From assembly GCA_051294375.1 (NCBI GenBank), contig CM119263.1, positions 17,756,628 through 17,820,627 of the forward strand: a stretch of DNA of 64,000 nucleotides. Direction: 5' to 3'. Source of the DNA: Paraspadella gotoi. Taxonomy: Eukaryota > Animalia > Chaetognatha. A program made the position numbers and the translations under genes. Positions 13,934 through 62,506 of the stretch are shown here, in pieces. Positions within the stretch are counted from its first letter, which is position 1, and each line of letters starts with the position of its first letter. The notes under the pieces are model-generated. The model was not told the DNA's origin. It was given only the letters and a program-made list of their open reading frames with translations, and did no database searches.

Positions 13934-16900
13934 ATGGATAAAACGGATTTACTCGTTCGTACGGGTTTGGGAAGGACGCTGGACCAGACTCTGGAAAAGA
14001 TTCCCTTAAATCGGCGTCTAACATATCGCGTTGGACGAAACCATGACCAGGAAATACGTATTGCCAATGACATGATTTCAAGAGAACACTGCGTGTTCGC
14101 TTATGTCGACGAAGCTTGGACTTTAGAAGATAAAAAATCCCTAAACAAAACGTCTGTCAACGGGGAAGATTTAAATCCGTACCAGCGACGGCCGTTGCGA
14201 CACAAGGATGTTGTGCGTTTCGGGATTGCATTGGAGAAACCGTGTCGAGAGTTTAAATTCTGCCTAAATTTACAAGACGCGGAAGAAATTTATTCCTGCG
14301 AAGGTCAAAAGCGCAAGCGTGAAATAAATACTGGACGTCAAGACTCTGACTTTGAGGTAGAAATTCTCTCAGACGACGACGATGCTAAGCAAGAAGAACG
14401 AATTGCGTCTTGTTCAGCGGAAATCCATTCGAAGAAGAAAACTCGACTTTCGACGCACGACGATACTTGTAGGAATCCCTCTTTAAAACGCCCAAATAAC
14501 GATTTACAAGGCGTGGATGCCATCGCTAAGTCGGGATCGTCGGAAACAGTTATGTCTTCTTCCATCGCTTCGAAACGTAAAAACTCAGATGGAAACAAAT
14601 TTGAAATATCTTCTGTACACTTAACACGTTGCCCAACTTTATTGGCTTCACCATCAAATTCTCCTATGGCAGCGTCAGGAGATGTGAAGGCGTTAAACGA
14701 GGAAATTGTTATAATATCCGATGATGATGATTTCCCTGAAAATGCAGCCACGAAATCTCCGGAGAAAGTAACTTCATCTCCTGTTTCAGAAACTCCATCG
14801 GATAGTTCTAATACTGTTGCTTTACATCCTATAAAAGATGAACAGCATATGCCTGCAGAAACGCCTCACCAGATCCCAGAACGGATTTCATTTAGGGGTA
14901 GCCGCAGCTCGCCACCGATTTTAGCGCCGCCGAATGTGATTAATGAACACAATAGTGAGGAACTATTATTAATCCTCGAACATGCCAAGCCTAATACTTC
15001 TTTAGCCGAGTCTAAAAACGTAGTAGTTTCTGAAGCTGACAGTTCTCTTAGTCCTCTCAGTGACAATTTATTTGAACGCAAAACTCCACCTGATTATGAA
15101 GAATTGTTAAACGATGCTGACAATGATGAAGATGATGATGACTTTAACTTTACTCAAGGGGTGGATGATGATGATGATGATGATTGTATTATCATCTCTG
15201 ACGAGGAATCAACTTTCGTGGGAAACGTGTCCCAGTCTCAGAGAGATATGGAATTTTTAGGTAAAATTAAAAATGAGGTTCCTTACGATAATAGTGATTA
15301 TATAGAAGATGATGTTCATGACGCTGTTACTTTTGAAGAAGACGAAGAAACGACGGTTCATAGCTCAGACAATCCAAACAAAAAGCAGGATGATATCCAG
15401 AGCGATTTGGGGGATGATGATGTCTTTTCTGAAGATGCTCAAGAATTGGTTGACTTAGACGACCATGATTCTCCTCATAATTATCCGCAGGTTACCGCCG
15501 TTACTAATACTGCAAAATTAGTCTTTAATATCAAGGACCTTCCTAAAGGTAAAAGTTTACAAACTGTGTCATCAACAATGGAAAAGGATGATACAGTAAC
15601 AGATGAGCCAGTAGAAAGCATAAAGGAAGCACTATTGCCTATAGCAGACGTAAATAATGCTGAAACAGTTAATAAACCTAATTCAGAATGCAAATCTCCA
15701 TATGCAACTGAAGATGGCGAAGTGGAATGTACTCGGATTCTGCAGCAGAGTAAAACCGCTAAATCTCCGAATTTGGAGGACGAAGCTAAACTTAAAAAAA
15801 AATTGATCAGAGCAAAAAATCGTAAAAATCTGGAGCTTTTGGCCAAAAAGCGTTCTTTAAAAAAACTAGAAGAGAAAACCTCTGATAATTCGAGCGATAG
15901 TGGTAGTGAATCCAGTGAATCCAACACGAGCGATTTTTATTCTTGTCCTGATAGAGATTGTCATTTCAAAACTATCAATGAAAGGTATTTTGAAAACCAC
16001 TGCAAACAACATCGGGAAAGACGTGAAAATGAAGAAAAAGCCTTTAAAGAACAAAATGCAAAAGGGGTTCGACAAAAACATCAATCTTTAGAAGTACCTT
16101 CCAGTTCTCTGATTGGAAATGTTTTTGATTCCATTAAGATACCCAAGTTGTCTAAAGATAATATTTGCAGTTATCCAAAAGTAATCGAACCTCACAACCT
16201 AAAAACCTCTCGTGAATTTCATAGCCTTGCACAAAGAGAAAATTGGAAAAGGGTGAACCCTGAGTCCAATTCAAAAGAAGAAAAATCTCAGAAGAGGGAT
16301 ACGGAAGATCCAAGTTTTATTGATAAGGCACAGTTAAAAAAAAAAATGGACAGAACTCGTAAAAAAATACCAAATGCTCAGGACATAAAGAGAGTGCGGC
16401 AGGAACACCATCAGAGAAAAGAATTATTAAAAAGTGGTATCAAAAAGAAAGCTGAGCGTGGTCCCTTAGGCGATCCCATATCATCAGCTAGAAGTTCAGC
16501 AACTATTGGAACACGTTCAAAAATAGCACAGAAATCTTTTGCACCCGTGAGTTTGGGACATCGCCGACCGGATCCTTATGACGTAAGTGCAACATTTAAA
16601 GAATTCTCGAAAAAAACTTCTTTTACTATTCCCAAAAAGTCATCGAGTTTGTCAGTTGTTTCTAACCCCAAGAAAACTAATGCCACTTCCGGCTCCTTAT
16701 CTGAGTCCGCCTCACACGCAGTGCCTCCTACTCCTCCAACAAAATCTATTTGTAAATCTACAACTAATAAAACCAATATTTCCGAAAAGATTCAAAATAA
16801 TAATAATTGGAACCAATTACAAAAAATGGCACCTTTTTACAATACTCCTACATCCGAAGGGCCTCCTACAAATGTTAAGAGGCATATTTCGATAGTACCA

Positions 16901-19600
16901 GATTCAACCTCAGGAATTCATCAACCTGGAAATTTATTATTATCGGAAGTCACGTTTTCCCAAGCTAAATCTTTATATTTAACCTTAAAGTGGAATGCTA
17001 TTTGGTTAAAAGAACAAAAAAGTAAAACTAAAAAGGACCCTCCGCTTTTTGGAGCAGATTGGGAGCAGCACCGTCTAAATTGTCAAAACGATGTACGCGT
17101 TTACTTACAAGATGACTACAACACTTTTGATGATTATCATCTTGCAATGGAATACGCTATAATGTCGGAAATATGGAGTGAATTATTTCATAGTCACCAA
17201 GAAAAGATGAAACAGTCCTTTAATTCCGATTCTTTCCTTTGGCCGGGTTTAGATAATATGTATATTTATGAGGAAACTTCTGCGACGTTAACAGAACCAA
17301 TTGAGGTTCTACGTTTTCGTTGCAAGCCTTTTAATATCTCTAGCCTGCTACTTGTTGGGTTAATTAGCGTTAGAGACATTAAAAAAATTCCTTCCGAGGA
17401 TAACCTCATCCTGATAAATCCTTTCGTTAGTAGCAAGAATGGAGCTTCTTACGAATATCTTTGTTTTGCAATTGTTAGATTTTCGAAATCAAGAACGGTT
17501 CGTGATGGTATTGAAAAAATTAAAGCAGAAAAAGATTCTTGTCCTCTACTGCAAGAGTTGATTCAAATAAAGGATGATGATTCAAAGTGCGTTTGCTGGA
17601 TTTCTGTTGAAGTTAATCGTAAAAATTTTGATGTGACCAAAAATTTAAAAGTATCGTCTAATCTTTTAAAATTAGACCGGTTTGCGAACCAATTGGCAGG
17701 TGTTTCCGACTTAGAAAAAAAAAATTCTAGACACGAGTTATTAAAAGTAAATGTCGGGTATGCCTCAGATCAAAATTTGAAAAAAGCAATAGAAACGTTT
17801 TCATCCGATTCAAATCATGATAAGAAGAAATTGAACGAGCAACAAAAAGTCGTCAACAGTTTTGAAGTTATGTCAACCTCTGGTATCAAACAGGAATGCC
17901 CTCCAATTACTTTGGTTCAAGGTATTCCAGGTTCTGGAAAAACTCATTTGACCTTAAAATTAATTGAAATGATTTTACAGACTATTAAAGACAAAAAAAC
18001 TAAAGAAGGTTCAACCCTTTTGCTAGTTCCTCGAAAATTTTCTGTCAAGGATATCTTTCATAGGGGGTCAACAAATATAGGAAAGAACTGCAAAAATGTA
18101 GTCTACTTAGAAAAAGATCAATCAATCGACTGTCATTATTTTTTAGAAAACCTTTTACATCAAAATTTTAAAGTGGCACCTAAAAACAAAGTAAATGCCA
18201 AGAAACTATCTCTAGAGAAATTGCGCCAGAAGTGCAAAGAATTGGACAAATTTGGCGATTCCCAATCACAGAAACACGAAAATCAGGCCGCAATAGTTAA
18301 GCAAATTAACTATTTAAAGTCCGAATTGAAAGCTTTAAAAAGTGAAGCTTACGTACCTAGCGAGGCGGAGAAGCACGATATGACCGGTCTTGTCCTTGAA
18401 AAGGCATATTTTATTTATGTTGTCGTCGATGGGGAAAATGAAAAAGATTTCATAAAATTTGCTCGCTGTCAAGGAATGTTTGATGGAAAGTTTTGTAAAC
18501 ATCGAAAAGGAGTGCGAGTGACCAATGTTATTGTAGATGACGCCCATGCAATTTCTGAGCCAAATCTCATGGCGGTGCTGGGAGCCGTGTCTTGGGAACA
18601 TTTGATCCTCATCGGTGATGTAAATCAGATTCCCCCTCTAGTTAAAAGTCTCTCGTTAAAGTCTCAACCGGGCTTGCTAACGCGATATTCGCTTTTCTCT
18701 CGCATGATGAACAAACGTCGAAACGAAGATCCTATCCGCCTTCATCGCCTTCTCTCTCGCCCACGATTTCATCACCCTGTTCTCGGACAAATGCAACATC
18801 GCGTCCTGAATATATCAGGCAACGATAGCATCGAAATTAAAGAAAAAAAATTATCGTCTTTCCACTTATTTCGTGTTCCGGATGATTTGGCAATATTGTC
18901 TTTGAAGCAGCACCCTTGGTCCGACGTCTGGGAAAAGTCTCCTCCCGTTTATCAAGGAATTATTTGCGCCGTAGCAATTTTGTTGAGCGAGGTGATATTG
19001 CCAGCCAACAAAGTTAACATTGTCGTCACTAACAAAAACTTGCTGATACTGCTGAAACAGCAAACAAAAATTAGAACTAACTGTTCGTCTGTTGAACTTC
19101 CCCGCGGCGTCCAAGGTCAGGAGTCTGACATTTCCATCATTGTTCTCTGCCCCGACTCTTCTTTTTCATCTCGACCCTGTTTCTTCGAAAGCACGGCGGA
19201 AAAGAACGTGGCTTTTACCCGCGCACGTCGTGCCGTCTATGTTATCGGCCGCCAACCTGAAATAGAAACTAGTCACGACGTGCGGGATCTCCAGTCTTTC
19301 GCCATTGGAGAATTCGACGAATCCTCGAAGAGACCGATTTACACCTCCATTCTTCCAATGGGCAAGTCTTTGAAGGACGTGCAGGACCTCCTCCGTGCTG
19401 TGATTGACAACCGCGACAAGTTGACGGCGTGGAGCGGGGGGTTTTATTCGGCAATGTCGCCGAGTTACAACGTTGTCGCGCCTCTACCATACTACAGGAA
19501 CCAACCTTCAGCCTCCGCATCAATGGCTCCGGTTATTCGTGAATCGAATCGTGATCCCCGCATTCGAATGCAGCAAATTCAATCTGGAGGCCAACAATGA
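13934..19600 (+). CDS. Single-exon FHA + C2H2 zinc finger + Sen1/senataxin-like SF1B (UPF1-like) helicase, 1888 aa from first ATG
   Basis: Uninterrupted 5.67-kb ORF. FHA (VGR...ISREH...SLNKTSVNG, ~14020-14225); C-x4-C-x12-H-x3-H finger (15944-16012); Sen1-type pre-helicase segment (F..Y....I..EIW). Helicase motifs: Walker A QGIPGSGKT (17918-17944), VIVDDA, LIGDVNQIPP, SLFSRM, VQGQESD, NVAFTRAR. Confidence 0.9.
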   Translation: MDKTDLLVRTGLGRTLDQTLEKIPLNRRLTYRVGRNHDQEIRIANDMISREHCVFAYVDEAWTLEDKKSLNKTSVNGEDLNPYQRRPLRHKDVVRFGIALEKPCREFKFCLNLQDAEEIYSCEGQKRKREINTGRQDSDFEVEILSDDDDAKQEERIASCSAEIHSKKKTRLSTHDDTCRNPSLKRPNNDLQGVDAIAKSGSSETVMSSSIASKRKNSDGNKFEISSVHLTRCPTLLASPSNSPMAASGDVKALNEEIVIISDDDDFPENAATKSPEKVTSSPVSETPSDSSNTVALHPIKDEQHMPAETPHQIPERISFRGSRSSPPILAPPNVINEHNSEELLLILEHAKPNTSLAESKNVVVSEADSSLSPLSDNLFERKTPPDYEELLNDADNDEDDDDFNFTQGVDDDDDDDCIIISDEESTFVGNVSQSQRDMEFLGKIKNEVPYDNSDYIEDDVHDAVTFEEDEETTVHSSDNPNKKQDDIQSDLGDDDVFSEDAQELVDLDDHDSPHNYPQVTAVTNTAKLVFNIKDLPKGKSLQTVSSTMEKDDTVTDEPVESIKEALLPIADVNNAETVNKPNSECKSPYATEDGEVECTRILQQSKTAKSPNLEDEAKLKKKLIRAKNRKNLELLAKKRSLKKLEEKTSDNSSDSGSESSESNTSDFYSCPDRDCHFKTINERYFENHCKQHRERRENEEKAFKEQNAKGVRQKHQSLEVPSSSLIGNVFDSIKIPKLSKDNICSYPKVIEPHNLKTSREFHSLAQRENWKRVNPESNSKEEKSQKRDTEDPSFIDKAQLKKKMDRTRKKIPNAQDIKRVRQEHHQRKELLKSGIKKKAERGPLGDPISSARSSATIGTRSKIAQKSFAPVSLGHRRPDPYDVSATFKEFSKKTSFTIPKKSSSLSVVSNPKKTNATSGSLSESASHAVPPTPPTKSICKSTTNKTNISEKIQNNNNWNQLQKMAPFYNTPTSEGPPTNVKRHISIVPDSTSGIHQPGNLLLSEVTFSQAKSLYLTLKWNAIWLKEQKSKTKKDPPLFGADWEQHRLNCQNDVRVYLQDDYNTFDDYHLAMEYAIMSEIWSELFHSHQEKMKQSFNSDSFLWPGLDNMYIYEETSATLTEPIEVLRFRCKPFNISSLLLVGLISVRDIKKIPSEDNLILINPFVSSKNGASYEYLCFAIVRFSKSRTVRDGIEKIKAEKDSCPLLQELIQIKDDDSKCVCWISVEVNRKNFDVTKNLKVSSNLLKLDRFANQLAGVSDLEKKNSRHELLKVNVGYASDQNLKKAIETFSSDSNHDKKKLNEQQKVVNSFEVMSTSGIKQECPPITLVQGIPGSGKTHLTLKLIEMILQTIKDKKTKEGSTLLLVPRKFSVKDIFHRGSTNIGKNCKNVVYLEKDQSIDCHYFLENLLHQNFKVAPKNKVNAKKLSLEKLRQKCKELDKFGDSQSQKHENQAAIVKQINYLKSELKALKSEAYVPSEAEKHDMTGLVLEKAYFIYVVVDGENEKDFIKFARCQGMFDGKFCKHRKGVRVTNVIVDDAHAISEPNLMAVLGAVSWEHLILIGDVNQIPPLVKSLSLKSQPGLLTRYSLFSRMMNKRRNEDPIRLHRLLSRPRFHHPVLGQMQHRVLNISGNDSIEIKEKKLSSFHLFRVPDDLAILSLKQHPWSDVWEKSPPVYQGIICAVAILLSEVILPANKVNIVVTNKNLLILLKQQTKIRTNCSSVELPRGVQGQESDISIIVLCPDSSFSSRPCFFESTAEKNVAFTRARRAVYVIGRQPEIETSHDVRDLQSFAIGEFDESSKRPIYTSILPMGKSLKDVQDLLRAVIDNRDKLTAWSGGFYSAMSPSYNVVAPLPYYRNQPSASASMAPVIRESNRDPRIRMQQIQSGGQQ

Positions 19601-21382: not shown

Positions 21383-24300
21383 ATGGAGGCATGTCTGGCC
21401 GTTGAAAAGGAAGTGCAGAAGGTATGCAACCATTACTATATTTTAAGCGATTTAAATTTAAGTGTATTGACTTATTATATCTTTATCGTTATTACAGGTA
21501 TCGTCTAAATTCATTTCAGTGAACGATCACGCCTCTAAAAATTTGTCCGATCTTATCTCATACGTACAGGGATTGAGACAAGAAATTTCAAACGGTTAGC
21601 TAATTTTTTGTGATCTGTTACAAATATATATTTATATGAGATATATATAGTTGAAATTCCTCGAGATTAATACTCTCCAGATGTCTATGGGAAAACGAAG
21701 AGCAAGGTTTTTATCTCGCCAGACGGGCGAAAGCCCGACTTGGGCGAAATGTTAATTCGTTTCTGCTTCTTTTGACCATTGTCGTCGTCGTCGTTACGCT
21801 GTTTTACCATTAAAAATAGTTTAAGTGTGTAACCATAGGAAGCTGAAAATTTAGATATGGTTTTTTATCATTGAGGTCTTTTAAATGTTATTTCATATTC
21901 CTATACTCATTTTTTTGTTTTATTTATAAAACAATTTTTATATATATAAACAAGTTCAGCTCTGCAGCGGTTGTCCAGCGGCTGTCCAGCGGCTGTCCAG
22001 TTTCTCTCTATTTCTCTCTCTTTTAATTATATATATCTTTTTTTTCCCTGTCGCAGCTTTTTCTGATTTGTCTAAAAACGAGTTCGCTCTGCAGCTGTTG
22101 TCCATCGGCTGTCCAGCGGCTGTCCAGCTTCTCTCTTTCTCTCTCTCTCTTTCAGTAATAAGAATTAAAAAGAATCTACAAGAAATATTAAGCCCATGTA
22201 GTAGCTTATCTGATAAATTAAGCGTTTTTAAAATCATTGTTACGGTTCTAATTTTTTTTTTCCTGTCTTGGCGATATAATTGTTTAGAATTGTTTCTTTG
22301 CGCCGTCGTCGTTATTGTCGTTACAATTTTTTACAATTAAAAATTGTAAAAGTGTATAACCATAGGAGACTAAAAATTTAAGGTTTAGGGTTAAGAGTAA
22401 TTTAGGGTTAGGGATGGTTGGGGTTAAGAGGGTTCAGGTTCGGGTAATTAAGTAATAATTTTTAAAATTATTTTTTTAAAAGAAGTATTTTTAAATGTTT
22501 TTTCAAAAGACGCTAAAACCCCGGTTGGCGAAAGTAAAATTTTGCCTGTTTGTTTTATTTACAAAACAATTTTTATATAAAAACTATTATAAATTACAAT
22601 GTAATTAATTATGTCGTTTTTCTTTTAAATATGTATCGTTCTTTCTCTTTTTTTCCGTCGCTGCCTCTTCTGATTCGTTTAAAAACGAGTTCAGTTCTGC
22701 AGCAGCTATCCAGCGATTGTCCAGCTTTCTCACTCATACACGCATTTGTATTATTTATTTATTTATTTTATTTATTTATTGCATCAATATTTCAATAATT
22801 GGTTATCATTGCATCAATAATTGGTTAACATTGCATCAATAATTGGTTATCATTGCATCATTAATTGGTTAACGCATCAATAAATTACGATTACATCAAT
22901 CGTTATTACATAAATTAATTACTATTATATGAATTAATTATTATTACTATTAAATAAAGTATTATTACATAAAATCAATTACCATTACGTCAATCAATTA
23001 TTATTATATCAAACAATTACTATTATATCAATCAATTACTATTACATCAATCATTCGTTTTTTTAGGATATTTTCATTAATTTTCTCTGATAGTAACGTT
23101 TAGCGAGATCACTATACTTTTAACATTTTTTTCATGTTCTTTCTCTTCATTTTCCCATAAGCGTATTAAAATTCGTTGTGTTATCCCCTTATAAGCTCCC
23201 TCCGGCGCCGAACTTAGCGTCGCTCAGGCTTCGGTGCTTCAATCTTCTCTCAAAAAAATTCGTGACGCCGTCGGTAAAATTGCCACTGATCACAAAGACA
23301 TCCATGGATCAGTGTCCAAGGTACAAATTTCTTCATATTTTTTCGATATTTTTTTTCATAGTGTAATTCTGTAATTCACATTTTTAATGAAAAAAATTTA
23401 ACTTTTTTGCATCTTTACACGGATTTCAAATGGGAGTGAAATGAAAAGATCAAATACTGTGGCTTAATTATTTGTTATAGCAACTTCAGATTTTTTTTAT
23501 TATTCAACTCCAAGTAGTCCCACTTGCTACTTTCTTAGTTATGAGCTCATAAATGGCATTGTGTGGCGGTATATTCACCTCGCCTCACATCCACCTTCGT
23601 TCAGCCAATCCCTTTGGCTCAGAGGGGAACACGCCATCCCAAGAGTTGCGTTCCATACGAAGCCCTAACGACTTCCCTCTGCGTTGGCAAAGTGACACCG
23701 TCCTAGTGTAACCGCGCCAGTGACAGGAGGCGTCACTGAGGGTCGGAAGTCCCTAAAGCCAACAGTGAGATGCCCCATCCCAATGGGCATCACAGGCAAC
23801 GCGGCTGTTGCCATATTGGTTGATTTTTAAAAAAGTAAAATTTTTATATTTAAATAGGACATTACTGTTATAGTAAGATTGTAGCGGTAGTATTTCATAC
23901 CCCGTTACTCGTCCGAGAATATTCAAAAAAATCAAAATGTTAAAAAATGTTGGTTCATCTTACAGAAATACTTTGTTGTATGTGCCTGGGCAATCAGAAT
24001 GTCAAAAGCTTTATCACAACCACGATGACAGCCTTTTTCATTTAAAAAAAAAATAGTCTGGCAAAAGCCTGTTGTCTAAACCTCGAAATATATTAATATG
24101 AAATTTTTTGCATGATCCCAAGACTTTATGCTAACTGTTGAATGTAAAAGAATCATAAACGTCAGCAAATTTTTCAACTAATAAAATGAACAAATATTAA
24201 TCAGTCATTTCATTTCACTCCTATTTGAAATCCGTGAAAGAAAGAAGGCAAACGGCCGAAATAGCCTATTCTCTCCCTTTTCCTAATAATGCTTCATAAC

Positions 24301-32800: not shown

Positions 32801-33790
32801 GGAAAACAATCAGTGTCGTGCGGGAGGCACTACGTACAGTGGCGCCGAGAGAGAGAGAGAGAGAGTGAGTGAGTCTGTCAGCGTCGCTAAAGATTTGAAT
32901 CAAGATTTAGAAATAATATAAATCGAAACGATCCGACGCTTAGAACTCATTTGTTTCGGAGAGACGGAAGGAGCGACGACGACGACAATAACAATAACAA
33001 GGACAACAATGACGCCGTCGATAATATCTTGTATCAACATCATCCCCGAAGACCATAAAAGGAAAATTGCGCCGCCTAAATTTGAAATGAGTTATTTGCT
33101 TTTTATTGACGTCGCCGCCGACGATGACAACGAAGACGGAGATGATCACGAAGACGGCGTGACGGCGTTTCGGGTGAGCAATTCGATCAAATGACCAGAA
33201 ATAAAATGCGCCATGATTCGTGAAATACTAAAAAAAATATAAAAATCTTAATACCTGGAAGATTGGTTAATGGTTGGGTATAAGTAAATTCTACTTGTGC
33301 ATTGTTTCAAACTTGTGTAGTCATGTGACCAATGCACAACTACGGTCACATGATAAGAAAGAAATTGTAGCATATCGTGTCCGCTTTACCTAATACTAAT
33401 AATAAACCAAAAGGTACTTCGTGCGCAAATGTTTCATAGTTATGTAGTCGCGTGATCATCTGAAAATGGTTGGACATAAGAAAGTCACTCCGGGCAGTAC
33501 GGCGGAACCGTTGAACTTGCCGAATCTTGTGAAACCTAGAGTACTTGGTTTCTTTATCGAGGAAGTGAAATAATATTTTTTAACAGTTTCCATAGAACAA
33601 AAAGACAGCTTCCGGAACAATAGTTAATAGGTGATTTTCTAAGACGCGAGAGTGACTGTACGCACAATCGGAATCGGAGAACCTGAATCGAGGGGCCGGG
33701 TCATTTCGCGGGATCCGCTTCTCATTTATTGACTTCGCGCTTTAAGGGATCGAACGGATTCGACTCTCAGTCAAATGAAAAACAGAACTG

Positions 33791-34045
33791 TGTGGCGGTA
33801 TATTCACACCGCCTCACGTCCACCATCCGTCAGCCAAATCCATTGGCTCAGAGGGGGAACACACCATCCCAGGCGTAGTGTTCCATCCACAGTCCTAACG
33901 ACTTCCCTCTGCGTTGGCAAAGCGAGACCGTCCTAGGGTAACCGCGCCAGTGACTGGAGGCGTCACTGAGGGTCGGAAGCCCCCAAAGCCAACAGTGAGA
34001 TGCCCCATCCCAATGGGCATCACAGGCAACCCGGCTGTTGCCATA
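33791..34045 (+). mobile_element. 255-bp solo-LTR-like element, copy 3 (best preserved), intergenic
   Basis: TGTGGC...TTGCCATA termini with perfect 4-bp TSD ACTG (33787-33790 / 34046-34049). Hairpins at both ends (GGCGGT/ACCGCC; GGCAAC/GTTGCC). Confidence 0.88.
33913..33993 (+). ncRNA. Twister ribozyme, type P5 permutation (predicted cleavage U33939/A33940)
   Basis: P5 GTTGGC/GCCAAC; AAA; P2 GCGA/CCGC; GA then T1 CCG/CGG; P1 TCCTAGGG; UAA; T2 GC; P3 CAGTGAC/GTCACTG; A; P4 GGG/CCC with loop T-CGG-AAGC. All twister landmarks occur in the correct order. Confidence 0.8.
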
Positions 34046-34515
34046 ACTGACGCGTTAATGACTTATCCTAGAGAAAAGGCGTTTCACAAAATTTTGGCTA
34101 AGGAGAGAGATTCAAAATGAGAGAGAGAGAGGCAGACCCCATTAAACGGGTTCGTCTCTGCGGTGACGAGTCCCAATTTCCTGCCCGAGGGTCCTTTTTG
34201 AATTCGAGTTGCCACGCCTCCATCGGCTCCGAAATTAATACAGCACTCATACGAAGTGAAGCGGCGTTTTAAGATTCGACATAGCGATAGTATTCGTTCC
34301 CAATTAAAAACCCTAAACATATTTTAAGTTTAATATACATAATTATACTAAATTTTATTTTGTTTTTCGCGTTCGGTATTTAGAATCATCCTAAATAACT
34401 CCATTCCAGTCCGTAACCTTAACACACTTTTCGTCATCGTCGTCTCTTCCACTCCCAACATCCGGGTTTGGTTTCCGCCCACTTCCGTTTCTCATCCTCG
34501 ACCCCCGAAATTTCC

Positions 34516-39903: not shown

Positions 39904-40847
39904 CTTCCTCCCTTTCTTTCTTTTTTTCTCTCTCGACTCGTGTCAGACAATATTTATGAATTGTACTTTTTTTTCTGATTATCCGCACAACTGGCCTCAA
40001 CTTGCAAGTCTCTATTCAGTCTCAGCATCTGCTTCTCGGTTTTTTATCTTTATTACTATTATTTATTATCACCATGAAATAATTTAACCAACGCAAAACC
40101 GGTAAAAGTAAGAACCTTAATTAGTTTATAGCAAATTCATGTTTTGTGAACAAACGCTGACTTACATACTCACTTTTTTTTGTCCGCTAAATAGTCTTCG
40201 CACAAATGGATATTCAGCGACTAATTATCCTTTATAAGGCCCACATATCACTTACTTGATATCGTTTTTTTTCCTTCCTCCCCCTTCTCCCTTGCTCCCT
40301 CTCATTTGAATAAAAAGACCCGAACGCGAAATTAATCCAAACCAATATTTTTTTCTTTCTCGTACTTTCCTATCCTTTCTCCATCGCTTATTCTTAGGAT
40401 AGTTCATAAGCCTAAAGGAAAGTCTTCACAAAAAGTAACGATAACTTTACAGTTAATTTTCAGATACATGAGATATCACAAGATTATTATAAATTTTGTG
40501 TGTCCAAAACGAATCAAACCATAACGTTTCGTATCTATAATTCTCAGTATATACTACACACGCAAATGTGAAAAGGATAAATTCCAAATGATCTTAAGCT
40601 CCTAAAGAAGAGATGGGGCGTGCCTCACACTAACAGCCCCCAACCTCCTCCCCGCCCACCCACCCCTGCCCCCCCGCACCCCTCGCCTCTTTTCACGGTC
40701 TGGTCCCTTTTCACAAATGAAAAAACCCCGTCATCCATTTGGCGGCGGATGTGAATTCCGATTCATTCCTTGGCGCTCCCTCTCTTTTTTTCCTCCTCAG
40801 CATAAAGGATTTCGCTCATCCGCTTACGGCCGCCGATTTAGTGGAGC

Positions 40848-41222
40848 GGGCTTTTTTTGGCCGGGGTGTAATTTATCTAAAGAGATGTGTACGATTTTGT
40901 ATTTAACGAAGGGCTTTTTTTTTGGCCGGGGTGTATTTTATCGAAAGGGAATGTTCGGTTTTCTATTTATCGAATGGCTTTTTAGGCAAGGGTGTGTTTG
41001 GATTTAGCGAAGGGCTCTTTTTGGGCAGGGTGAAGTTTATCTAAAAAGATATCCATAACTTATGGCATAAGGCCTGGGCATAATTTTCTAAAACAAATGA
41101 ACTTACGGTTTTCGATAAAGTGAAGGGCTTTTTTGGTGGGGAAGTATTTTATCAAATGAGATATGTACGCTATTCTATTTCATAAAGGGCTTTTTGGGCC
41201 GGGCCGTATAATTTCTCCAAAG
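40848..41222. repeat. Degenerate ~60-bp tandem array (transposon subterminal or minisatellite type)
   Basis: About six units beginning GGGCTTTTT(T)nGGCCGGGGTGTA(A/T)TTTATC, with mutually similar intervening sequence. Confidence 0.7.
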
Positions 41223-44200
41223 AAATCTCTTTTTAAGAAGTGGCAGTGCTATTTTTAGAGACAGTCGTGTTTGCTTTTTTACTTGCAAAGGATTTTTATG
41301 AAAAACTGGTTTCAAAAATATAATTAATGTTTATCAATTTAAATTTTTAGGCCACATACTTCAAAAGGAGATTCATAACTCATATTTTATGTTTCTTATT
41401 TCTCTGCCCTCAACTTAAAGGAAAGGTTCCTATTCTAAATTCACAGATGAACCACAACGCCGGGTGGGTATTTGCACATTCCCAATCCACCCCTCCCCAC
41501 CCCACCACACTCACCCTTTCCCCCTTTCAAAATTCGTCGTAGCGAGTATAATTTGCGTTAATGGCGTTCATTTGTCAGACTCTCGGGTCTTCCTAACTAA
41601 TTCCACCGACGCTCAAAAGAGGGAGACCCTTTTTTGAATGATAATAGAATTGGATGTTCAGAAATGAGGGGAAGGAAAAAAAAATCGTCTGGGGGTAAGG
41701 GCGGGGGCGAGTAAAAGGCGACCCTAAATTACTTTTTTCTTTCTCCGAAACGTTTATTTTTTTCTTTTGCAATTTGAAAAGAGAGAAATTGGATTGAATT
41801 TAAAAAAAGTTGGAAAAATGGAAATTTCTTTGCACTCATAACGAATGAAAGATTTTCTTAAGGGACCAGTGATAAAAATGATATCATAAGCTTAAGGGTC
41901 TATCATCAAAGGAATTTGAATGGTGATAGTCATTATTTTTTCTTTGCGAGGAAAGTGGCAAAAAAATTCCTATCTCTTATTGTAGCGGAAACAAAATTTT
42001 TAATAATTATGAAAAAAAAATTTAGTTGACCCTACCTAAATATTTATATAATCCATTATTTTATTTTTGCATTAGAAGTATTTTTATCTAAATTCCAATT
42101 TTTTATTTTTTACTGTACAAAGCTATAATTTTAGGTTTAAGCCTCATTGAACAAAGGCTTTACAAGACTAATATTTTTTTATTTTTTATATTTACTTAAA
42201 AGCAGACAAATCAAACCTAAATTCTATTCTTACAAAAACAAAAACTGTAATAATTATTAATTAAATATTCATATTCATCCTTTAAATGTATAATTAAACT
42301 ATATTGATCTTAATTATAACAATTAAAAATTTAGCAAAAGTACAGAATCTTTCTCTTCTTTTTATATTAATATTACTTCAAAGAGTTTTATTTTCATCCA
42401 ATTAACAGAATCATTTGAAAAGAAAGTTTAATAAAATCAGTCGATACCTTAAATTTTGATTCATTCCTAGTTTTTTTTTTCTTATAAATTTTTGTGATAA
42501 AAGCTTAAAATCTTTTTAAAATTAGATCTTACCCTTTTTTGGAAAAAAAAAATTTTAAACTTGAAAAAGATTTTCTTCTTACCGATTTTTTAAAGAAAAT
42601 TAAGCTCGCTGATTTTATCGAATTTTTTAACTACTTTCCCAAATGATTATAGAAGAAAAAATTATATGATCAGAACCAGCTTAAGTTAAAGGGTCAAACA
42701 TTATGTTTTCAGCTTTTTACCCCCCTGTTCACTTGGTCCCTTAACCTCCTGTATGGAGCGGTTTAAAGATATAAGTAAATATCCAAGTAAAAAGTATCTT
42801 TTTCTCTTAAAGTCAAGCCTCCCTTCTATTATCTTTTTCTATTTCTTCCTGCTATTAGTCGCTTAATTGTTTTTCCCTTTCTCAGCTTCTTCATTATCCT
42901 ACTTTTTCCCTAGCCTTTCTTTTCTTTTCCTCTTCCTTTATCATCTCATCCTCCTTTTCAAAAAGAACCGCTTATTTTCTCCTATCCTCTCCATCTCTCT
43001 CCTTTACTCTCCTTCTCTCCTCCCTCTTCCCCTTTTTCTTCTCACATTTTCTCCTCCTCTCATCCTCTTCTTCTCCCCTGCCTCTCATTTTAACTCAACT
43101 GCTTCATTTCTCCTTTTCTCTACCTATCTTCTTCTTTCTCTTCTTCCCCCCTCTCTCTTCCTCAACCGCCTCTTCTCCTCTCTCCCTTTCTCTCCCTCAT
43201 CTCTTCCCGCTCTCTCTTCCTCAACCGCCTCTTTTCTCCTTCTCTTATAAAGAGGGACGTAATTTTTCAAAGGAGTTCCGGTCGAAGAGGCGCCACTCGG
43301 TTGGGCGCGCGTGTCGGGGGGCGTCAGCCGCAGCGGGGGCGGCAGCAGCGGCGGAGACGGAATACCGCGGCGTCGATGAACTCTGATTGTTGCTCTTCAT
43401 GCGATTAAAGCGTTGGAGCGAACATGAGAGGACGAGCTCGCCTCCTTTCTCCCTTCCTTCTTCTCCCTTCCTTCCTCCCTTCCTTCCTCCCTTCCTGCTT
43501 CTCCCTTTTTCCCCTCCTTCTTCCCTTCCTTCTTCTCCCTTTATTCCTTTTTCCTTCTTCTTCTCTTCTCTGTTTTTGAGAGCTTTCCGCCGCTCAGCAA
43601 AGTGCATATATTCCTCAACTCTTAATTCTTCTTAACTTTTGTCTAAACTTTCCAATACCCTTTAATTATTGTTCGATGTTCATTAGAGTGGAACACTGGG
43701 GAACTTAAATTTTATTTGAGTGAACAAACATGGATATTTAGACGTGAGATAGTATGATTAAGGAGTACAAAAAATATTTTGCTTATATTGCTTGAGAAAC
43801 AATATCGTTCATTACAATATATTTATAGTAATATCCTTATAAAATAATAAATTTGTAAAATAATTTGTTTTAAATTTTTAGCACAGATATTGTTTTTGTT
43901 ATTAATAAATAAAAAGATAAGAAAACAAACTCATTTTACCTCCATTTTACCGTCAATTTCTGAAGGTCGTAAATGAAATTTTCTTCATTTTTGTCCCTCC
44001 AAATATACAGACGACGGTGGCGAAGGGTTTGAAGATTGTCAGGGTGAGCTATGGGCGCGGCCTTAATTGAAAATGACGCGAAAGGCGTTGCCCTTTGTCT
44101 CTTTCCCTCATTAGCAGCGGCGGTCGCGATGGAGAACGGAGAAACTGGGTCGGTGGTGAAGTTGACACCATCTCTGCTGAAAGATACTCTTCGATCAAAA

Positions 44201-45131
44201 ATGCTGTGGTTGAGGCGGCGACGAAGGATGTGTATAGTTTGAGCACCGGCCAAAGATGAAGTTTACTACTGTTTCCTTTTTCTGTAAATTCTTGAGAGTG
44301 ATCGCCTTCTATTTAAATCATCGACTTCTTTCTATATAGTATTTTTTATGACCGTCACTGGTTGTAATCCAGATAGAGAGAGCTAAATGTAGCACGGTGC
44401 CCGACAAATTGTTTAACTACATCGGTTTTAACCTTATTTTGGTTTACGAAATTAAAAAAATTACGGGAGTGTTGGCTGATCATTGATCAATTAATCTATT
44501 GGGCTATTAGCTTGTGTAGTGTTTAACGTTCGATTTCGTTTCTATCCACAGACCGGATTAAAAAGTTTTTAAACGTTCTTTCGAATCAGATCGTTTCACT
44601 ATGACTATATATTTTTCTTGTTTTTTCTATTTGTCAATTAAATTCTCAAATGAATAAAGAAAGCGAGAAATGGTTCATTCATCTATATTGCACAACTGAA
44701 AAGATAAATGGCGTCGTATATGAGTGATATGCTTAAGACGAAATACACAATGTAAAGGTAGACAAGATTAAAAAAACATCTGACTTAACGCATTCAAAGA
44801 CTTTTTTATTAAGTTTCTCGCATCACTTGGGGTAGAGGGGGAGAAGGAGAGAAGGAGAGGAACGCTATGGATAATGATATGACAAGGGATTTCGCTTTCG
44901 TGGAAAAACGAGGGAAGTATGAAAAACTAAGGAGGAAACAAGGAAAATGTAGTAATAATTTAAGGGCGAAGAAATAGGGTTTTTTAGTTTTAAATTGTAG
45001 TTTGTCCGTTTGACGGCGAGAATCCTAACCAGCGCCATCTCCGTATACCGCTTAGCGCCACTTCGTCGGCAGAGCGCCAGAATCGCCGGAAACGCCGCCT
45101 TTCAGATGACGGTGGCGAATTCTTTTCGGGT

Positions 45132-48100
45132 TCAGACGATGGTGGGACAGGGAGGCGAGAGAAACGCGGGACGCGTCGTCGTCATTGGAGGAATGGAGGA
45201 GAGAATTTGCGGGTTAGATGAGGAGGAGGGGGAGGAGGAGGAGGAGGAAGATAGAGCCGGTAAGGGGTTGACGGGAGCGGTTGGGCTGGGGTGGGAAGCG
45301 GTTGGATGAGAAGCGGTTGGATGAGAAGCGGCTTCCAGTGGAGGAGAGGGAAGTTGATGCGACGGCGTTTGCGAGGAGACAATGTTTGATGTCTGAAAAT
45401 GAAATTGAAATGTTAAGATTAGATTAGTCGAATGTATAAAAATAATTTCTCTCATTATAAAGTTGATTCTCTTCTTATATTTAATCAGTTTTCCTTCTTT
45501 TCAATTTCTCACCTGATACTCTGCCATCGCCGCAGCCGCCGCCTGCTCCTCCGCCGCCCAGGGTCTCAAGTTCTGCAGAGCAGCTAGCGACGCGTTGCTG
45601 AGGCAAAGGGGATCCCGTGCCGACTCGTAGGTCGCGGATTTGCTTGCCTCGGCCGCCTGGTTGTTGAAGCAATAATTTTAAGATTGAGTACTTCAATATG
45701 AAGGCAATCAAACAAACGCCAATCACACCTTTAAACAATCGTCTATTATCTAATAACAATCTTTTATTCCTAGAAAAATTGCTCAATCAGTCAATCAAAA
45801 GTTTTACCAACTTTTTCTCACCTGTTCATTCTCTCACCTGCAACGACATCAGCAGACGATTGGCTGCCTGTCTTTCCGCTTCCCTCTCTTCCGCCGTTTG
45901 ACGCCTGAAAATGTTAACAAAATAAGGAATAGATTTAATTTATAGTAATGTTTTGGCGGGACAACTTAAGCACAATTCAATCATCAACAATTTTTTAATA
46001 TTAAAATGCGTAGTGATTGCACTATTCTTGGACGCAAATAAAAGAAGATAAAGATGAAGAAATCAAGTTTTTGATGAGTTATCGACAATAAACACGACCT
46101 GGCATGAAAAGAAAATAGAGAAAATAGAGGAGGAGAAAAAATATGACAGAGGTAGATAGAACGAGAGGAATGTCATGATCGGTCATTTGTCTGAAGTCGA
46201 CTTCGATTTACGGTTTTTGTCGTCGTCGACGTCATCTCTAATACGTCTCCGAAAGAAACAACGGAACACGAGAAAAACGAAGACATTCGACCCGAAAGTC
46301 AGAAAGACGAGATGGAATCGAAATTGGCAAAGCGAAGGTCAGTAATTTGAAGTAATTCTATAAAACCCCCAATAAAAATTAAATTCGCGCTTTCTTCGAC
46401 GGGAACGACGTTCGGTCCAATTCAAATTCACTTTTTTTCCTTTTAACTTTTATGATCTCTTTATTTTTAAAGACGTTTATTGCGTCCCCTTCTTTTCAAA
46501 ACTTGGTGGTCCTATGGAAGAGACTTTAATATGTTTCTCATGTCGTTAATACAATCCTTAAGCAACAATGAATAAAATGGCGATGAGTCACATTATCACA
46601 AATTGCAGTGTATCGCAGTTGGGCGAGATGACTCAATCTCCGTAACGTCGATTTTGCGATTTTATTACAAAAAAAGTGAGGCTGTTATCATTATCTTTAC
46701 GTCTCGCCAACAACACCGACCGACGCCGACGTCATCAAATATAAATGAAATAAATAAGTATCGTAAAAGGCTAACTACCTCGCGGTCTCGCGACGAAATC
46801 AGATGTTTAGCCTCCTTTATTTGTTGACGTTTATGAGAAAATTAGTCATTCTTCCAGCGATCCATAAATTATCCCCCCGTTTCGCCCGAAACTCGTGGCG
46901 TCGCTTCAATTAACCGAGCGTCTGCTCGACAAACTCCGGGGAGGGCTCCTCTGTACCGCAGTGAACCAGCATTGATTGGTTGATCTATTATAGTCCAAAT
47001 CGGACGATTCAGGTAGTATTATCCACCGACATATTAACCAGTTATCCCCTCTTTAACCCCGTCACTCCGTTTTATTTTTGGCCCATCAATTTCATTAGAA
47101 TCACCGTGATTCCGGTCTTATGGCAAGATTCAGCACTGTAGTAACGACAGGTAACGTTGCCTTAGTCAGTCTTCATTGCCCCCTCTATAATCCATTTGCT
47201 GACGATTTCTCGTATGGACGACTAATCCGGACGAGCAACTTCGACGACGACGACAACGACAACGATCGAATAAAGAAACGAACAATCCTCAGTATCTTGT
47301 GTCTCTTTGTTTCAAATTCATTGATTTCGAATGAATATCTTATTTCCTCTCTCTCTCTCTCTCTCTCTTTCTCGTCTCGATTCTCTGTCCTCATCTCTCT
47401 CTTCATCTCTCTCGTCTCTCTCTCTATTCCTCCGCACGAGATGGAGTCGAGGAGGAATCTTCGTACCATCCATCATCCTTTCGTGTCGAATTAAATGAAT
47501 TACCTTTTTCCGCAGACACGATCCTTGGCCAAGATAAGAACGGATAGACTTACCATTTTTTCGAGGGTTTTCGCCCCTCCCCCCGCGACCTACCTATTCC
47601 GCAAATACTGACCCCGATGTGGATGGACAGTCTGTCTATTATGAGACTTTCATAAGCTGTCTCTCTTTTTTTTTCGAAAAGATGGATGAAATCAATCTAT
47701 CTTACACTTATTTTTAATGAGCTTTTTATTAAGTTTCTTTATTAGTTGATTGATTAACCTCCGTCTTGTTCTTTACTTAGTTTTATTTTAAAATTAATTT
47801 AATTTAAAATTTTTGTTGTTGGTATTTTGGCAATAGAAATTCAAAGATATCTTTGCCTGTTTCGATGAAAGTTATGCATATGTTTTAATTTTTGCGTCTC
47901 AAACTATTTTCAATATAATTCCCGTATTAATAAAAGTAAAAAAAAAGAATAAAAAAATAGAAAAATACTCTTTGTGTACCACATTATACAATAATATTAT
48001 CGTTCGTTTTTTTTTGTCTAACATTAACAATATTTTATGCTTGAAAAGAAGTTTCTCTGCCTCCTCCCTTTTCTGTTATTCTTTCTCCGCCCTCCTCTTC

Positions 48101-48910
48101 CCTTTATTGCCATTTCGATTCCATTATATTTGATTTTCCCTTTTTTCTCTTTGTTTTCTTTCCGTGGATTTCCGGGTAAGTTCTTTCGCCATTCATGGTT
48201 TCTTTTGTCGCCGAAGGTAAGTTTCGAGGAGAGGAAAGAGTGTGAGGAGATCGGCGAAAAGTTTCGCTTGAAATTTCGTCTAATAATGTTCCGGATTCTA
48301 TTTGAAGCGAATGAAGCGTAACATTTGAACTTTAAAACGTCTTTGGCTCTTAATTATAACTTCTAAGACGATCAATTATACGTTAATTGCTCTTCTTTGT
48401 GTCCGTCTGTCCGTAAAAAAAAAAGAGATAATTTGCGTCAAAAATGTTTTTGGAAATGATTCGTCGCTCTCGTCTAAATTCTAGTTAAGAGATAACTTAC
48501 TTCGTCGGTTTTCCAGTTTGTCTTCTTTTAGACATTCGTTTATTTATTTATTGATTTATCGATTGGTTTATTTACTCATTCGCTTATTGAGTTATTGATT
48601 TATTTACTAAAATGTCTTCATTTTTTCTACTCAATTATTTACTCAATAAAACTTGTACATTGAAACATAAATTACTTCAAAGTTCTCAGAGAGATGTATT
48701 TTTTGTCATTTAATACTTCACCTCATATAATTTTTTTTAAAAGAGTTTAATCATTATTTCTATATTTCTCATTATTTTTCTCTCCGTTATTTTCTTCCTC
48801 CTTTTTTTCCCATTTTTGTCAGTAGCGCCGAACTCATTAGTGGCGTCTTTTACGTTGTCTGGAGATTTTATTAACAGAAATCTCATTCGCCAAATTGAAT
48901 GACAATTTCC

Positions 48911-48943
<33 letters not shown>

Positions 48944-49957
48944 NNNNNNNNNNNNNNNNNNNNNNNNNNNNNNNNNNNNNNNNNNNNNNNNNNNNNNNNN
49001 NNNNNNNNNNNNNNNNNNNNNNNNNNNNNNNNNNNNNNNNNNNNNNNNNNNNNNNNNNNNNNNNNNNNNNNNNNNNNNNNNNNNNNNNNNNNNNNNNNNN
49101 NNNNNNNNNNNNNGGATCAAGCGACCGTGGATGTGACAAAGCGTGATATACGATTATGCTAAGTTGTGAAAAGAGGGAAAACTTTTATTTATTCGAGCGG
49201 CAGAAAATTAGTGGATTTTGATTGAAAAGGCGCCTCGGCAATTTGCCTCTCTAATTTATTGGCTATCAACGGTTTAAACAGTTACCTGATCTGCTTCTCG
49301 TCCTCTCTCTCTCTCCTCTCTCTCCTCTCTCTCTCTCATCCTTCTCTCTCTCTCTCTCTCTCTCTCCTCTCCTCTCCTCCTCTCAGCTTTTTCGTTGGCA
49401 TTTAAAAATCATTTGTGATAATTTGTCTTAATGGGGTTTAATAAGTCTGGCTCCATAGTGGTTGACAGAATATTTGGTAAATCAAGACGTCTGTCAATTT
49501 TTCGCCGCGTTTTTTTTTGTTACACTAATGGAGGCAATTTTTTTTATTTTTTAAATGGAGCCGAATTTTGAGAATAATGAAGTCGATGGAGGTCTTGGCT
49601 TTCTTTCTTTTTTTTTTCATGCTTCGACCCTTCGGCGAAATATATCTCGATACTAACTCACATTCGAAAATATTTTTAGATATTATAATTTACATCGAAC
49701 GTAATCTTTGCTCATTTCAGGGTTAATCTTGATTATTACTACAATTCGCACCGTAGTGACGGCCTTTCCGAATCGATTTATTTATATTTCTTTCTGCCGT
49801 TCACGCAGTAGTGACTTCCAGCCTCGCAAATCTCTGGCGGCTAAAAAGTTAATCGTTCAGACAAATGATCAATTCGATCCGTTTAAAGAGAGGGAGGGAG
49901 GGAGGGAGACAGAGAGAAAAAGAGGGAGAGAAAAAAAAAAGAGAGAGAGAGAGAGAT

Positions 49958-50003
<46 letters not shown>

Positions 50004-50887
50004 TATTTAAAGAGACTTTAATTAATCGGCCGGAGAAAAATTGGTGAAAGTTTCGCCTGGATTTTTCGACCTCGACCAACGCGTCATTTCCTTCGGCGCC
50101 ATTAATATATTTATTTAATCTTATTCATTAAATGGAGATTAGGGAGATTTATTTTATATGTTCACTTTTTTTTTGTGTGAGTCGATTATGGTCCAAACGG
50201 TTTCGCCAAATAAATTTGACGCCAAGTGTCGACGCCACATCGAGTCGCCATCGAATGACCAAAAAATACCGAAAATAGATTTACAGTGGAAAAAAGTCCT
50301 GGCAAATTTGGTGATCGATGTGATCAAAAATCTACATTTAAAAAAAAAAGGAAACCAGTGAAAAATAGGAAGAAGGAAGGAGAGCAGAGGACCACGAGAA
50401 CAACGGAAAGTAAAAACAGTGAAAGAACAACTTCCAAATCGGCAAAAAAATTGATTTAAATATTAAATATTAAATTCCCCTCAGAAATCGTACGTTGGAA
50501 GCGTAGTCGTCATTAAAATGATATTTATCGAGTTTCTCGCTCAACATCCGCAATAATCCGTATTTCCGACGTCGACCGAGACTCACCTCCATTTCGTCCT
50601 TCTGTTCTGGAACCAAGTCTTGACTTGAGCGTCAGTCATCTTGAGTTGTTTGGCCAGAGTCGATCTCTCGCTCGAAGCCAAATATTTTTGCCTCATGAAT
50701 CTGAAGGAGACGAAAAAGGAGGGGAAAGTTAAGATTAAGATTGGCGGCGGCGTCTAAGCGGCGAAGGGTGAGGCCTGAACTCACCTTTTCTCGAGTTCGC
50801 AGATTTGCTGCCGCGTGAATGAAGTCCTCGGCTTCTTTCTTTTGGGCGGAGTCCGGTTCTGGTAGGGATGGCCGATCCGACGAGTGA
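45132..50887 (-). CDS. Tlx: Tlx/Hox11 (C15/clawless) NK-class homeobox gene, 3' five exons; 5' exons unresolved
   Basis: Exons: 50887-50785 ([34 protein letters not shown]), 50700-50587 ([38 protein letters not shown]; Thr47 diagnostic), 45904-45838 ([22 protein letters not shown]), 45656-45513 ([19 protein letters not shown]), 45392-45132 (P/S-rich tail, TGA). Canonical splice sites. Confidence 0.96.
48944..49113. other. Assembly gap (170 N) at a CT microsatellite
   Basis: N run. The equivalent region in the duplicate (~60140-60258) is CT repeat. Confidence 0.99.
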
Positions 50888-51187
50888 CTGAGAATAATAG
50901 GGTAAAAATTATGAGATGTTTACCCAAACAATGAATTCATCTATTATTCCTTCCTTCATTCATTCATTCATTAACACATTCATTAGTTTATTATGAAATT
51001 AATTTAACTGCTTTCTTTCGTTCTTTCTNNNNNNNNNNCTTTCTTTCTTTTTCGCTTTATTGTCTTCATGACGTGCGAATTGACGAGTGAGCTGAGGCCA
51101 TAGTGGGCGTGGCCTCTTTCTTCATGGCATTTCCGGTCGAGGCTCGAGACGTGGGATAAATCATCTCACTTACCCGAAAACAAATTG

Positions 51188-51213: not shown

Positions 51214-62506
<11,293 letters not shown>

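Follow-up and report, generated by a model that had tools for sequence, protein, structure and literature searches.

A dispersed repeat of 255 bp at positions 33791–34045 of the window analysed here, a 64,000-nucleotide (nt) stretch of contig CM119263.1 from the chaetognath Paraspadella gotoi, carries in its interior an apparent self-cleaving RNA of the twister class. The reading that we favour, at somewhat better than even odds (about 0.55), is that the repeat is the long terminal repeat (LTR) of a small Ty3/Gypsy-type element, probably of the CsRn1 lineage, and that this element is likely an LTR retrozyme in which a twister stands in for the hammerhead ribozyme.

A first-pass annotation, made from the letters of the window, had proposed an intact type-P5 twister at 33913–33993 within a dispersed repeat. 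When the sequence was re-read, the letters and coordinates of the 81-base motif agreed with that proposal, and all core bases and both pseudoknots could be placed base by base, which bears out the assignment to the twister class; the strand order, P5, P2′, GA, T1, P1, UAA, P2, P3, P4, P5, is that of the P5 permutation. The predicted catalytic G (G33926) and the predicted cut between 33939 and 33940 are likewise upheld by their places in the twister consensus. The parts of the motif are the following:

33913–33993 (+): twister ribozyme motif of type-P5 order, identified by descriptor, base-by-base pairing and a partial Rfam twister-P1 match at 33945–33988
33913–33918 (+): 5′ strand of P5, pairing with 33988–33993 (6/6 Watson-Crick; pairing probability 0.87)
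33922–33925 (+): P2 strand, pairing with 33942–33945 (3/4, the innermost A33925-C33942 being mismatched)
33926–33930 (+): conserved GA (G33926, the predicted general base, and A33927) and the T1 triplet CCG, opposite CGG at 33974–33976 (3/3 paired)
33931–33938 (+): P1, an 8-nt segment containing the palindrome CCTAGG (on its own no predicted hairpin; as a self-duplex −11.0 kcal/mol)
33939–33940 (+): U^A, where cleavage is predicted from the twister consensus; the cut would follow nt 149 of the 255-nt repeat
33946–33969 (+): T2 GC, the 7-bp P3 hairpin and the purine before P4 (pairing check, partial Rfam match)
33970–33987 (+): P4, loop L4 (TCGGAAGC) and the CAAA linker (pairing check, partial Rfam match)

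Pairing is complete in T2 (33946–33947 with 33979–33980, 2/2 Watson-Crick pairs), in P3 (33948–33954 with 33962–33968, 7/7, with A33969 next) and in P4 (33970–33972 with 33981–33983, 3/3). The core, comprising U33939^A33940 A33941, GA, GC and U-NNN-AAGC, is present throughout and is identical there to that of a phage twister, L241 (117–185, − strand), which the Rfam twister-P1 model matches at E 9.8e-9 with 48.3 bits against a threshold of 67.2. L241 also shares with the motif the rare CGG/CCG T1, the loop and the CAAA linker; the swapped T1 triplets, read in the first pass as covariation, therefore have a precedent in nature. The consensus fold of the three copies of the repeat in the window gives P5, three P2 pairs and P3 unaided. 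A twister descriptor in P5 order, applied to both strands of the window, recovered 33913–33993 as its single site and gave no match in 150 dinucleotide shuffles of the window or in 20,000 shuffles of the repeat; this descriptor was composed after the motif had been seen, so that the result argues for "not chance" more than for "family member". We are highly confident that the motif is of twister descent.

That the motif sits in a dispersed repeat also proved correct, and two further copies were found in the window. The features of the family there are:

33791–34045 (+): repeat, likely a solo LTR, TG...TA with 6-bp imperfect inverted ends (sharp ends in runs X1, X8 and X9; fold z = −3.6)
33787–33790 (+): target-site duplication ACTG, left 4-bp copy (flank comparison)
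34046–34049 (+): target-site duplication ACTG, right 4-bp copy (flank comparison)
33799–33804 (+): TATA-like TATATT near the 5′ end, a candidate promoter element suggested by its sequence
23562–23815 (+): second copy, 229/254 identical, likely in an intron of a CTLH-domain gene (sense); catalytic G position changed
991–1245 (−): third copy, 237/255 identical, between ATP-citrate lyase exons (antisense); one mismatch each in T1, P3 and P4

The repeat at 33791–34045 is strongly folded, has 59% GC amid AT-rich surroundings, and offers no ATG frame longer than 49 amino acids. It has no tail; all three window copies are single, with no tandem array in the window, and none of them contains AATAAA or ATTAAA. 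The target duplications agree at 4/4, 3/3 and 3/4 positions in the three copies (TTG/TTG around 23562–23815, extending to 4 bp if the last base counts for both sides, and CAGT/CTGT around 991–1245), with chance expectations of about 0.005, 0.018 and 0.057, and the majority flank letters in contigs, ...AT before the repeat and AT... after it, fit a symmetric 4-bp target. Insertion at TA of the Tc1/mariner type was considered and rejected, since the left flank does not end in TA. Beyond the window, run X1, possibly from the window's own source, holds 8,623 contigs on the repeat with sharp ends, of which at least 266 (four groups listed) depart at its 3′ end, and run X8, from another sample and another study, shows identical ends; together these point to at least hundreds of copies. 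Summed depth is about 2 million on the repeat against 160–285 in its flanks and is not taken as copy number, and in run X9 depth rises toward the 3′ end of the repeat, contig depth being unable to rank its parts.

Runs X8 and X9 also hold several contigs that match the ribozyme half (33890–34043) at about 89% and have a different 5′ part; one of these, an X9 contig of 1998 nt, has a depth of 214, far above the others listed. Their sequences suggest a second subfamily that has retained the twister. The pentamer CATCC occurs four times in the repeat (33824, 33865, 33884 and 34006), mostly in predicted loops or linkers, and is perhaps a protein-binding or packaging signal.

The identity of the repeat is indicated by what follows its 3′ end. 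One contig of 276 nt in run X10 (organism B, study P4) is identical to 33855–34046 at 191 of 192 positions, and one contig of 506 nt in run X12 (a biofilm, study P5) shows six substitutions and four deleted bases and has 234 letters upstream. These two contigs, which represent different variants, have the same 21 letters past the repeat end, A G then TGGTGAGCCC..., the shared extension reading A G TGGTGAGCCCTACTATCGA with ten further letters in X10. A TGG two bases past the end of an LTR stands in the usual place of a primer-binding site (PBS). The first 6 and the last 14 letters of the X10 extension match complements of tRNA 3′ halves; a pattern drawn from it fell inside an ARAGORN tRNA at 19 of 29 prokaryote-genome loci, 17 of these tRNAs being Arg and 2 Thr; for a similar pattern this held at 11 of 16 viral loci. 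These overlaps identify the X10 extension as the complement of a tRNA 3′ half including CCA, with 9 letters where the tRNA has 12. The shared tRNA complement two bases past the repeat end is, judged by its letters, the mark of a PBS, probably the complement of tRNA-Trp. It is probably of the type used by CsRn1 Gypsy elements, a lineage defined by a tRNA-Trp PBS and 4-bp duplications (PMC3630058), in which the PBS begins TGGTGACC and the LTRs measure 179–358 bp (PMC3630058, PMC3587641). Single repeats bounded by short duplications are what solo LTRs look like (PMC8969392). We consider it very probable that the repeat is some form of LTR; for the copy at 33791–34045 a solo LTR is the likely reading, derived from a small Ty3/Gypsy-type element that probably belongs to the CsRn1 lineage. 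A viral scan with the PBS pattern gave 0 loci, and the window contains no tRNA genes.

Three other records touch on this subject. The X10 contig, nearly identical to the window copy, could reflect horizontal transfer, a close relative, prey or contamination. A short contig of a metagenome-assembled genome (L269, 1–1177, − strand) has a stretch that looks like an LTR and, after it, a tRNA complement of 32 letters, with no twister seen; its 17/18 match to the 5′ half of the motif (E 0.063) was rejected as homology, as it lies in an ordinary hairpin. Locus L253 has at 1501–1532 a tRNA 3′-half fragment in eukaryote-looking DNA, on a contig filed as a bacterial metagenome-assembled genome.

The proposed life cycle follows that of plant LTR retrozymes (PMC4918200, PMC9695139). 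By this analogy, a transcript spanning two LTRs would be cleaved twice, each time behind nt 149 of the LTR. In the P5 order, P5, P2 and T1 would keep both cut ends together, which would favour closure into a circle by a host ligase. A tRNA bound at the PBS would then serve as primer for reverse transcription, and the reverse transcriptase and integrase that copy and insert the element would come from a partner Gypsy element. The copy at 33791 would have originated as a solo LTR, through recombination or from a short cDNA. Dimer cleavage is described for hammerheads whose palindromic stem is short (PMC6765202, PMC7229834), and by comparison the palindromic P1 suggests that the twister, too, may cleave as a dimer. 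In the most speculative step, P1 would form only between two copies, with the effect that two-LTR transcripts are cut efficiently and lone copies weakly; weak cutting of lone copies would spare host pre-mRNAs. A bolder version of the model, which we put forward tentatively and rate below even odds, would make this the first animal LTR retrozyme and the first built on a twister: a non-coding parasite of CsRn1 Gypsy elements, cleaved through its P5-permuted ribozyme in the dimer only, whose two-LTR transcripts would become circles and whose thousands of intronic solo LTRs would be harmless.

Several observations weigh against the twister-retrozyme reading. As regards the LTR, the PBS is degenerate, with the 9 letters for 12 given above; its junction was found in only two contigs, neither from the window's organism; the ARAGORN tRNAs under the pattern are bacterial tRNA-Arg and tRNA-Thr; and the tRNA-Trp call draws on published CsRn1 sites and on a weak match of the Rous sarcoma virus PBS model (RSV_PBS, E 0.9) to the corresponding stretch of L253. 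The PBS also resembles the tRNA-like stretches of L253 and L269, and the scans retrieved no gene for an animal tRNA-Trp. The repeat, whose start is TG and whose ends are fixed, ends in TA and not in the canonical CA. Noncanonical LTR ends are known in a CsRn1-like element, GyRex2, which has the PBS TGGTGACCCTGAAGTA, LTRs of 358 bp and ends CT...AA (PMC3587641). Neither a two-LTR element nor a polypurine tract nor an internal region was seen, the letters past the LTR numbering 84 and 20 in the two contigs, and there was no back-joint among 30 of 109 joints listed. In the window's own organism, where the PBS junction was not seen, contigs would merge it into a single record out of hundreds.

As regards the ribozyme, the Rfam search put forward in the first pass as a check gave no match in the window at gathering thresholds. 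There was a single partial match of twister-P1 (RF03160) to 33945–33988 (15.2 bits, E 3.4); Twister-P5 (RF02684, gathering 37.6 bits) had no match at E up to 10, and our own covariance model of 30 phage P5 twisters, run with filters off, gave four matches, all with E > 3 and none in the correct register of the motif. The weak Rfam score is attributable to a P5 model with a long P1 and no P3: checked on 20 phage loci, this model covers 58 nt with an 8-bp P1 and has neither a P3 nor a P5 stem, and the phage-derived 30-member model is biased in the same way. Nine of ten twister-P1 matches on 20 phage loci also fall under that family's Rfam threshold. The motif, which scores under the thresholds of both families, is like them in its core bases and both pseudoknots; it has the P5 strand order, and its half comprising P3, P4 and the linker resembles the P1 model. 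It is unlike Rfam Twister-P5 in its 8-nt palindromic P1, 7-bp P3, closed 6-bp P5, C-A pair and CGG/CCG T1. Viral scans with family-like patterns gave no relatives (0 loci in the first; 71 in the second, with no convincing twister in 4 partial parses or in 20 loci scanned), and the sole match of a metagenome scan was rejected as a chance match inside a bacterial-looking coding stretch. Rfam found no hammerhead in the window.

The first-pass annotation had named the C-A pair at the base of P2 as the only blemish, a view that must be given up, as the 8-nt P1 without a third monomer pair and a competing fold join it. The yardstick here was a set of 169 phage loci retrieved by twister-like patterns, which reduced to 88 distinct parses; of these 49 have the P1 order and 39 the P5 order, which the first pass had called the least common permutation. 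A33925-C33942 is mismatched in all three window copies and no common variant repairs it, which makes it a family trait; a C-A first P2 pair occurs in none of the 88 phage parses, two of which have other mismatches there, the parser favouring paired readings. P1 has 8 nt against 14–39 nt in 38 phage P5-order twisters, and is the shortest of the 39; the monomer can form at most two P1 pairs, since the third cannot close, and the dimer six Watson-Crick pairs. In energies computed without pseudoknot terms, the nested twister fold reaches −21.4 kcal/mol against −31.5 for the best fold, a gap of about 10, and gaps of at least 9 kcal/mol occur in only 1 of 38 P5-order and 4 of 40 P1-order phage twisters; with the whole repeat folded, the pairing probability is 0 for P4 and 0.14 for P2. 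These models indicate that self-cleavage of the monomer may be weak. Studied twisters tolerate a good deal: in the rice ribozyme most T1 pairs can be exchanged for different ones, and of the 69 single mutants made in P1, P2 and P4, 33 retain more than 80% relative activity (PMC5113685), and in env22 P1 is dispensable (PMC5408937).

An unlikely alternative is that the repeat serves as LTR to an autonomous CsRn1-type Gypsy element. Its twister would take over the role of a poly(A) signal in forming the 3′ end of the genomic RNA, or would cut only a fraction of the RNA as a brake on expression. LTR length, the 4-bp duplication and the PBS all fit autonomous CsRn1 elements, the C-A pair, short P1 and competing fold would leave much of the RNA uncut, and the 84 and 20 letters past the LTR are too few to exclude gag. 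Ordinary LTR reverse transcription requires the terminal repeat of the RNA, however, and cuts in the middle of the LTR would strip both this repeat and the cap. No retroelement domain was found in the 191 frames of the window that were scanned, a result that speaks for this window only.

Variation among copies bears on another alternative, to which we give still less credence: that the LTR carries a dead or nearly dead passenger twister from an ancestor and that the family spread by ordinary LTR retrotransposition. The family-wide C-A pair, the minimal P1, the stable competing fold and the lack of covariance-model support would all agree with this, as would the damaged core in both other window copies; damage after insertion is, however, expected in single old copies. 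Pooling of variant sites reaching at least 4% in X1 or X9, or at least 1% in X8 or X9, gave 18 common sites. Of these, 15 lie in the 174 bases of the repeat that flank the motif and 3 (33955, 33959 and 33984) within its 81 nt; the shares are sums of depth over contigs and not copy counts. All three motif variants fall among its 16 loop and linker positions and none among its 65 constrained positions (p = 0.007), and the constrained positions also differ from the rest of the repeat in common variants (Fisher p = 0.013). This avoidance speaks against a passenger, as do the X12 variant, in which the motif is altered in the P3 loop only, and one X8 contig with a two-sided A-T to G-C swap in P3. 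Some of the sites outside the motif are private to the window copy 33791–34045, and the 52 bases 3′ of the motif are also free of common variants. Rows found in X11 or X12 only (33874, 33894 and 33895) and single contigs of depth 2–3 at 33919, 33927 and 33936 were omitted; the X11 differences at 33927 and 33936 hit constrained positions and tell the other way. The distribution of variants is suggestive of selection on the motif.

The least probable alternative takes the repeat for a complete non-LTR unit resembling a short interspersed nuclear element or a miniature inverted-repeat transposable element (MITE), its tRNA-like sequence reflecting insertion beside a tRNA-derived repeat: three single window copies, TG...TA ends with inverted similarity of only 6 bp and diverse junction flanks in the host's runs (agreement 0.40–0.48) would suit such a unit, but it shows no 5′ truncation, A-rich tail or long variable duplications, the tRNA complement with its CCA end lies two bases past the repeat in the different variants of two studies, and contigs merge a shared junction into one record, so that diverse flanks are compatible with full elements.

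The window has other features of note. A tandem block of about 11 kb (40371–51026 and 51214–62275, about 90% identical across N gaps) may be a segmental duplication, or may come from two haplotypes laid out one after the other. A 160-bp inverted repeat (75–234 and 597–756, 77.5% identity) is MITE-like and lies near the ATP-citrate lyase exons. One of these exons, used as query in a protein search, placed the host among animals and gave no close named relative. An uninterrupted frame of 1897 amino acids at 13907–19600 (+), in which an FHA domain is N-terminal and a superfamily 1 helicase domain (AAA_11) C-terminal, stands among other genes that are intron-rich, and a homeodomain exon lies at 61652–61975 (−).

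Set beside known systems, the repeat is closest in layout to plant LTR retrozymes, with which it shares a ribozyme in a short LTR, a 4-bp duplication, a PBS at the LTR end, many solo LTRs and likely mobilisation by Ty3/Gypsy elements (PMC4918200). Those elements have a type III hammerhead, a tRNA-Met PBS and LTRs of 300–400 bp (PMC4918200), whereas the repeat described here, known from its LTR and junction alone, has an animal host, a P5-order twister in place of the type III hammerhead by which LTR retrozymes are recognised, probably a tRNA-Trp PBS and an LTR of 255 bp. With CsRn1 Ty3/Gypsy elements it shares a PBS starting TGGTGA, the 4-bp duplication and a short LTR (PMC3630058, PMC3587641); the likeness is one of PBS, duplication and LTR length alone, and the PBS here is degenerate. 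The T-variant twisters of Schistosoma Perere-3 are likewise tied to an animal retroelement and tolerate a weak P1, but they are 5′-terminal in non-LTR (RTE) elements, whose transcript they release, whereas the motif described here is in the middle of a likely LTR (PMC8501958). Animal non-LTR retrozymes and the hammerheads of Penelope pLTRs are also short, highly folded, high-copy repeats with a short palindromic stem; they differ in carrying type I hammerheads in tandem, with neither LTR, PBS nor 4-bp duplications (PMC7229834; 10.64898/2026.07.22.740005). Where animal non-LTR retrozymes are tandem monomers with no PBS, the present repeat occurs as single copies with a PBS-like junction.

Known settings of twisters include the 5′ end of non-LTR elements (PMC8501958, PMC7761336) and viroid-like circles (10.1101/2022.07.19.500677). 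An LTR-type reverse transcriptase lies downstream in 1.6% of a T-variant subset, an observation left unexplained in the available part of that report (PMC8501958). A July 2026 preprint assigns LTR retrozymes to plants and non-LTR retrozymes to animals, all with hammerheads, and the portion of its text at hand never names the twister (10.64898/2026.07.22.740005). Our literature search, which covered mostly papers outside subscription, found no report of a twister in an LTR and none joining CsRn1, LTR and ribozyme.

The design of a retrozyme with its ribozyme inside the LTR has so far been described in plants, with another ribozyme. If the reading of the P. gotoi repeat as a twister-based LTR retrozyme is true, it would break the pairing of LTR retrozymes with plants and of non-LTR retrozymes with animals, as well as the pairing of retrozymes with hammerheads, and would suggest more than one origin for parasitism by an LTR-borne ribozyme; the twister would also have a second job besides freeing non-LTR transcripts. 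Should the bolder version hold, the 191/192 copy in another organism's run would point to recent horizontal spread. The motif provides a natural case for asking whether a twister cleaves as a dimer. Finally, Rfam misses motifs of this kind, and similar elements may therefore be common, and overlooked, in invertebrate genomes.
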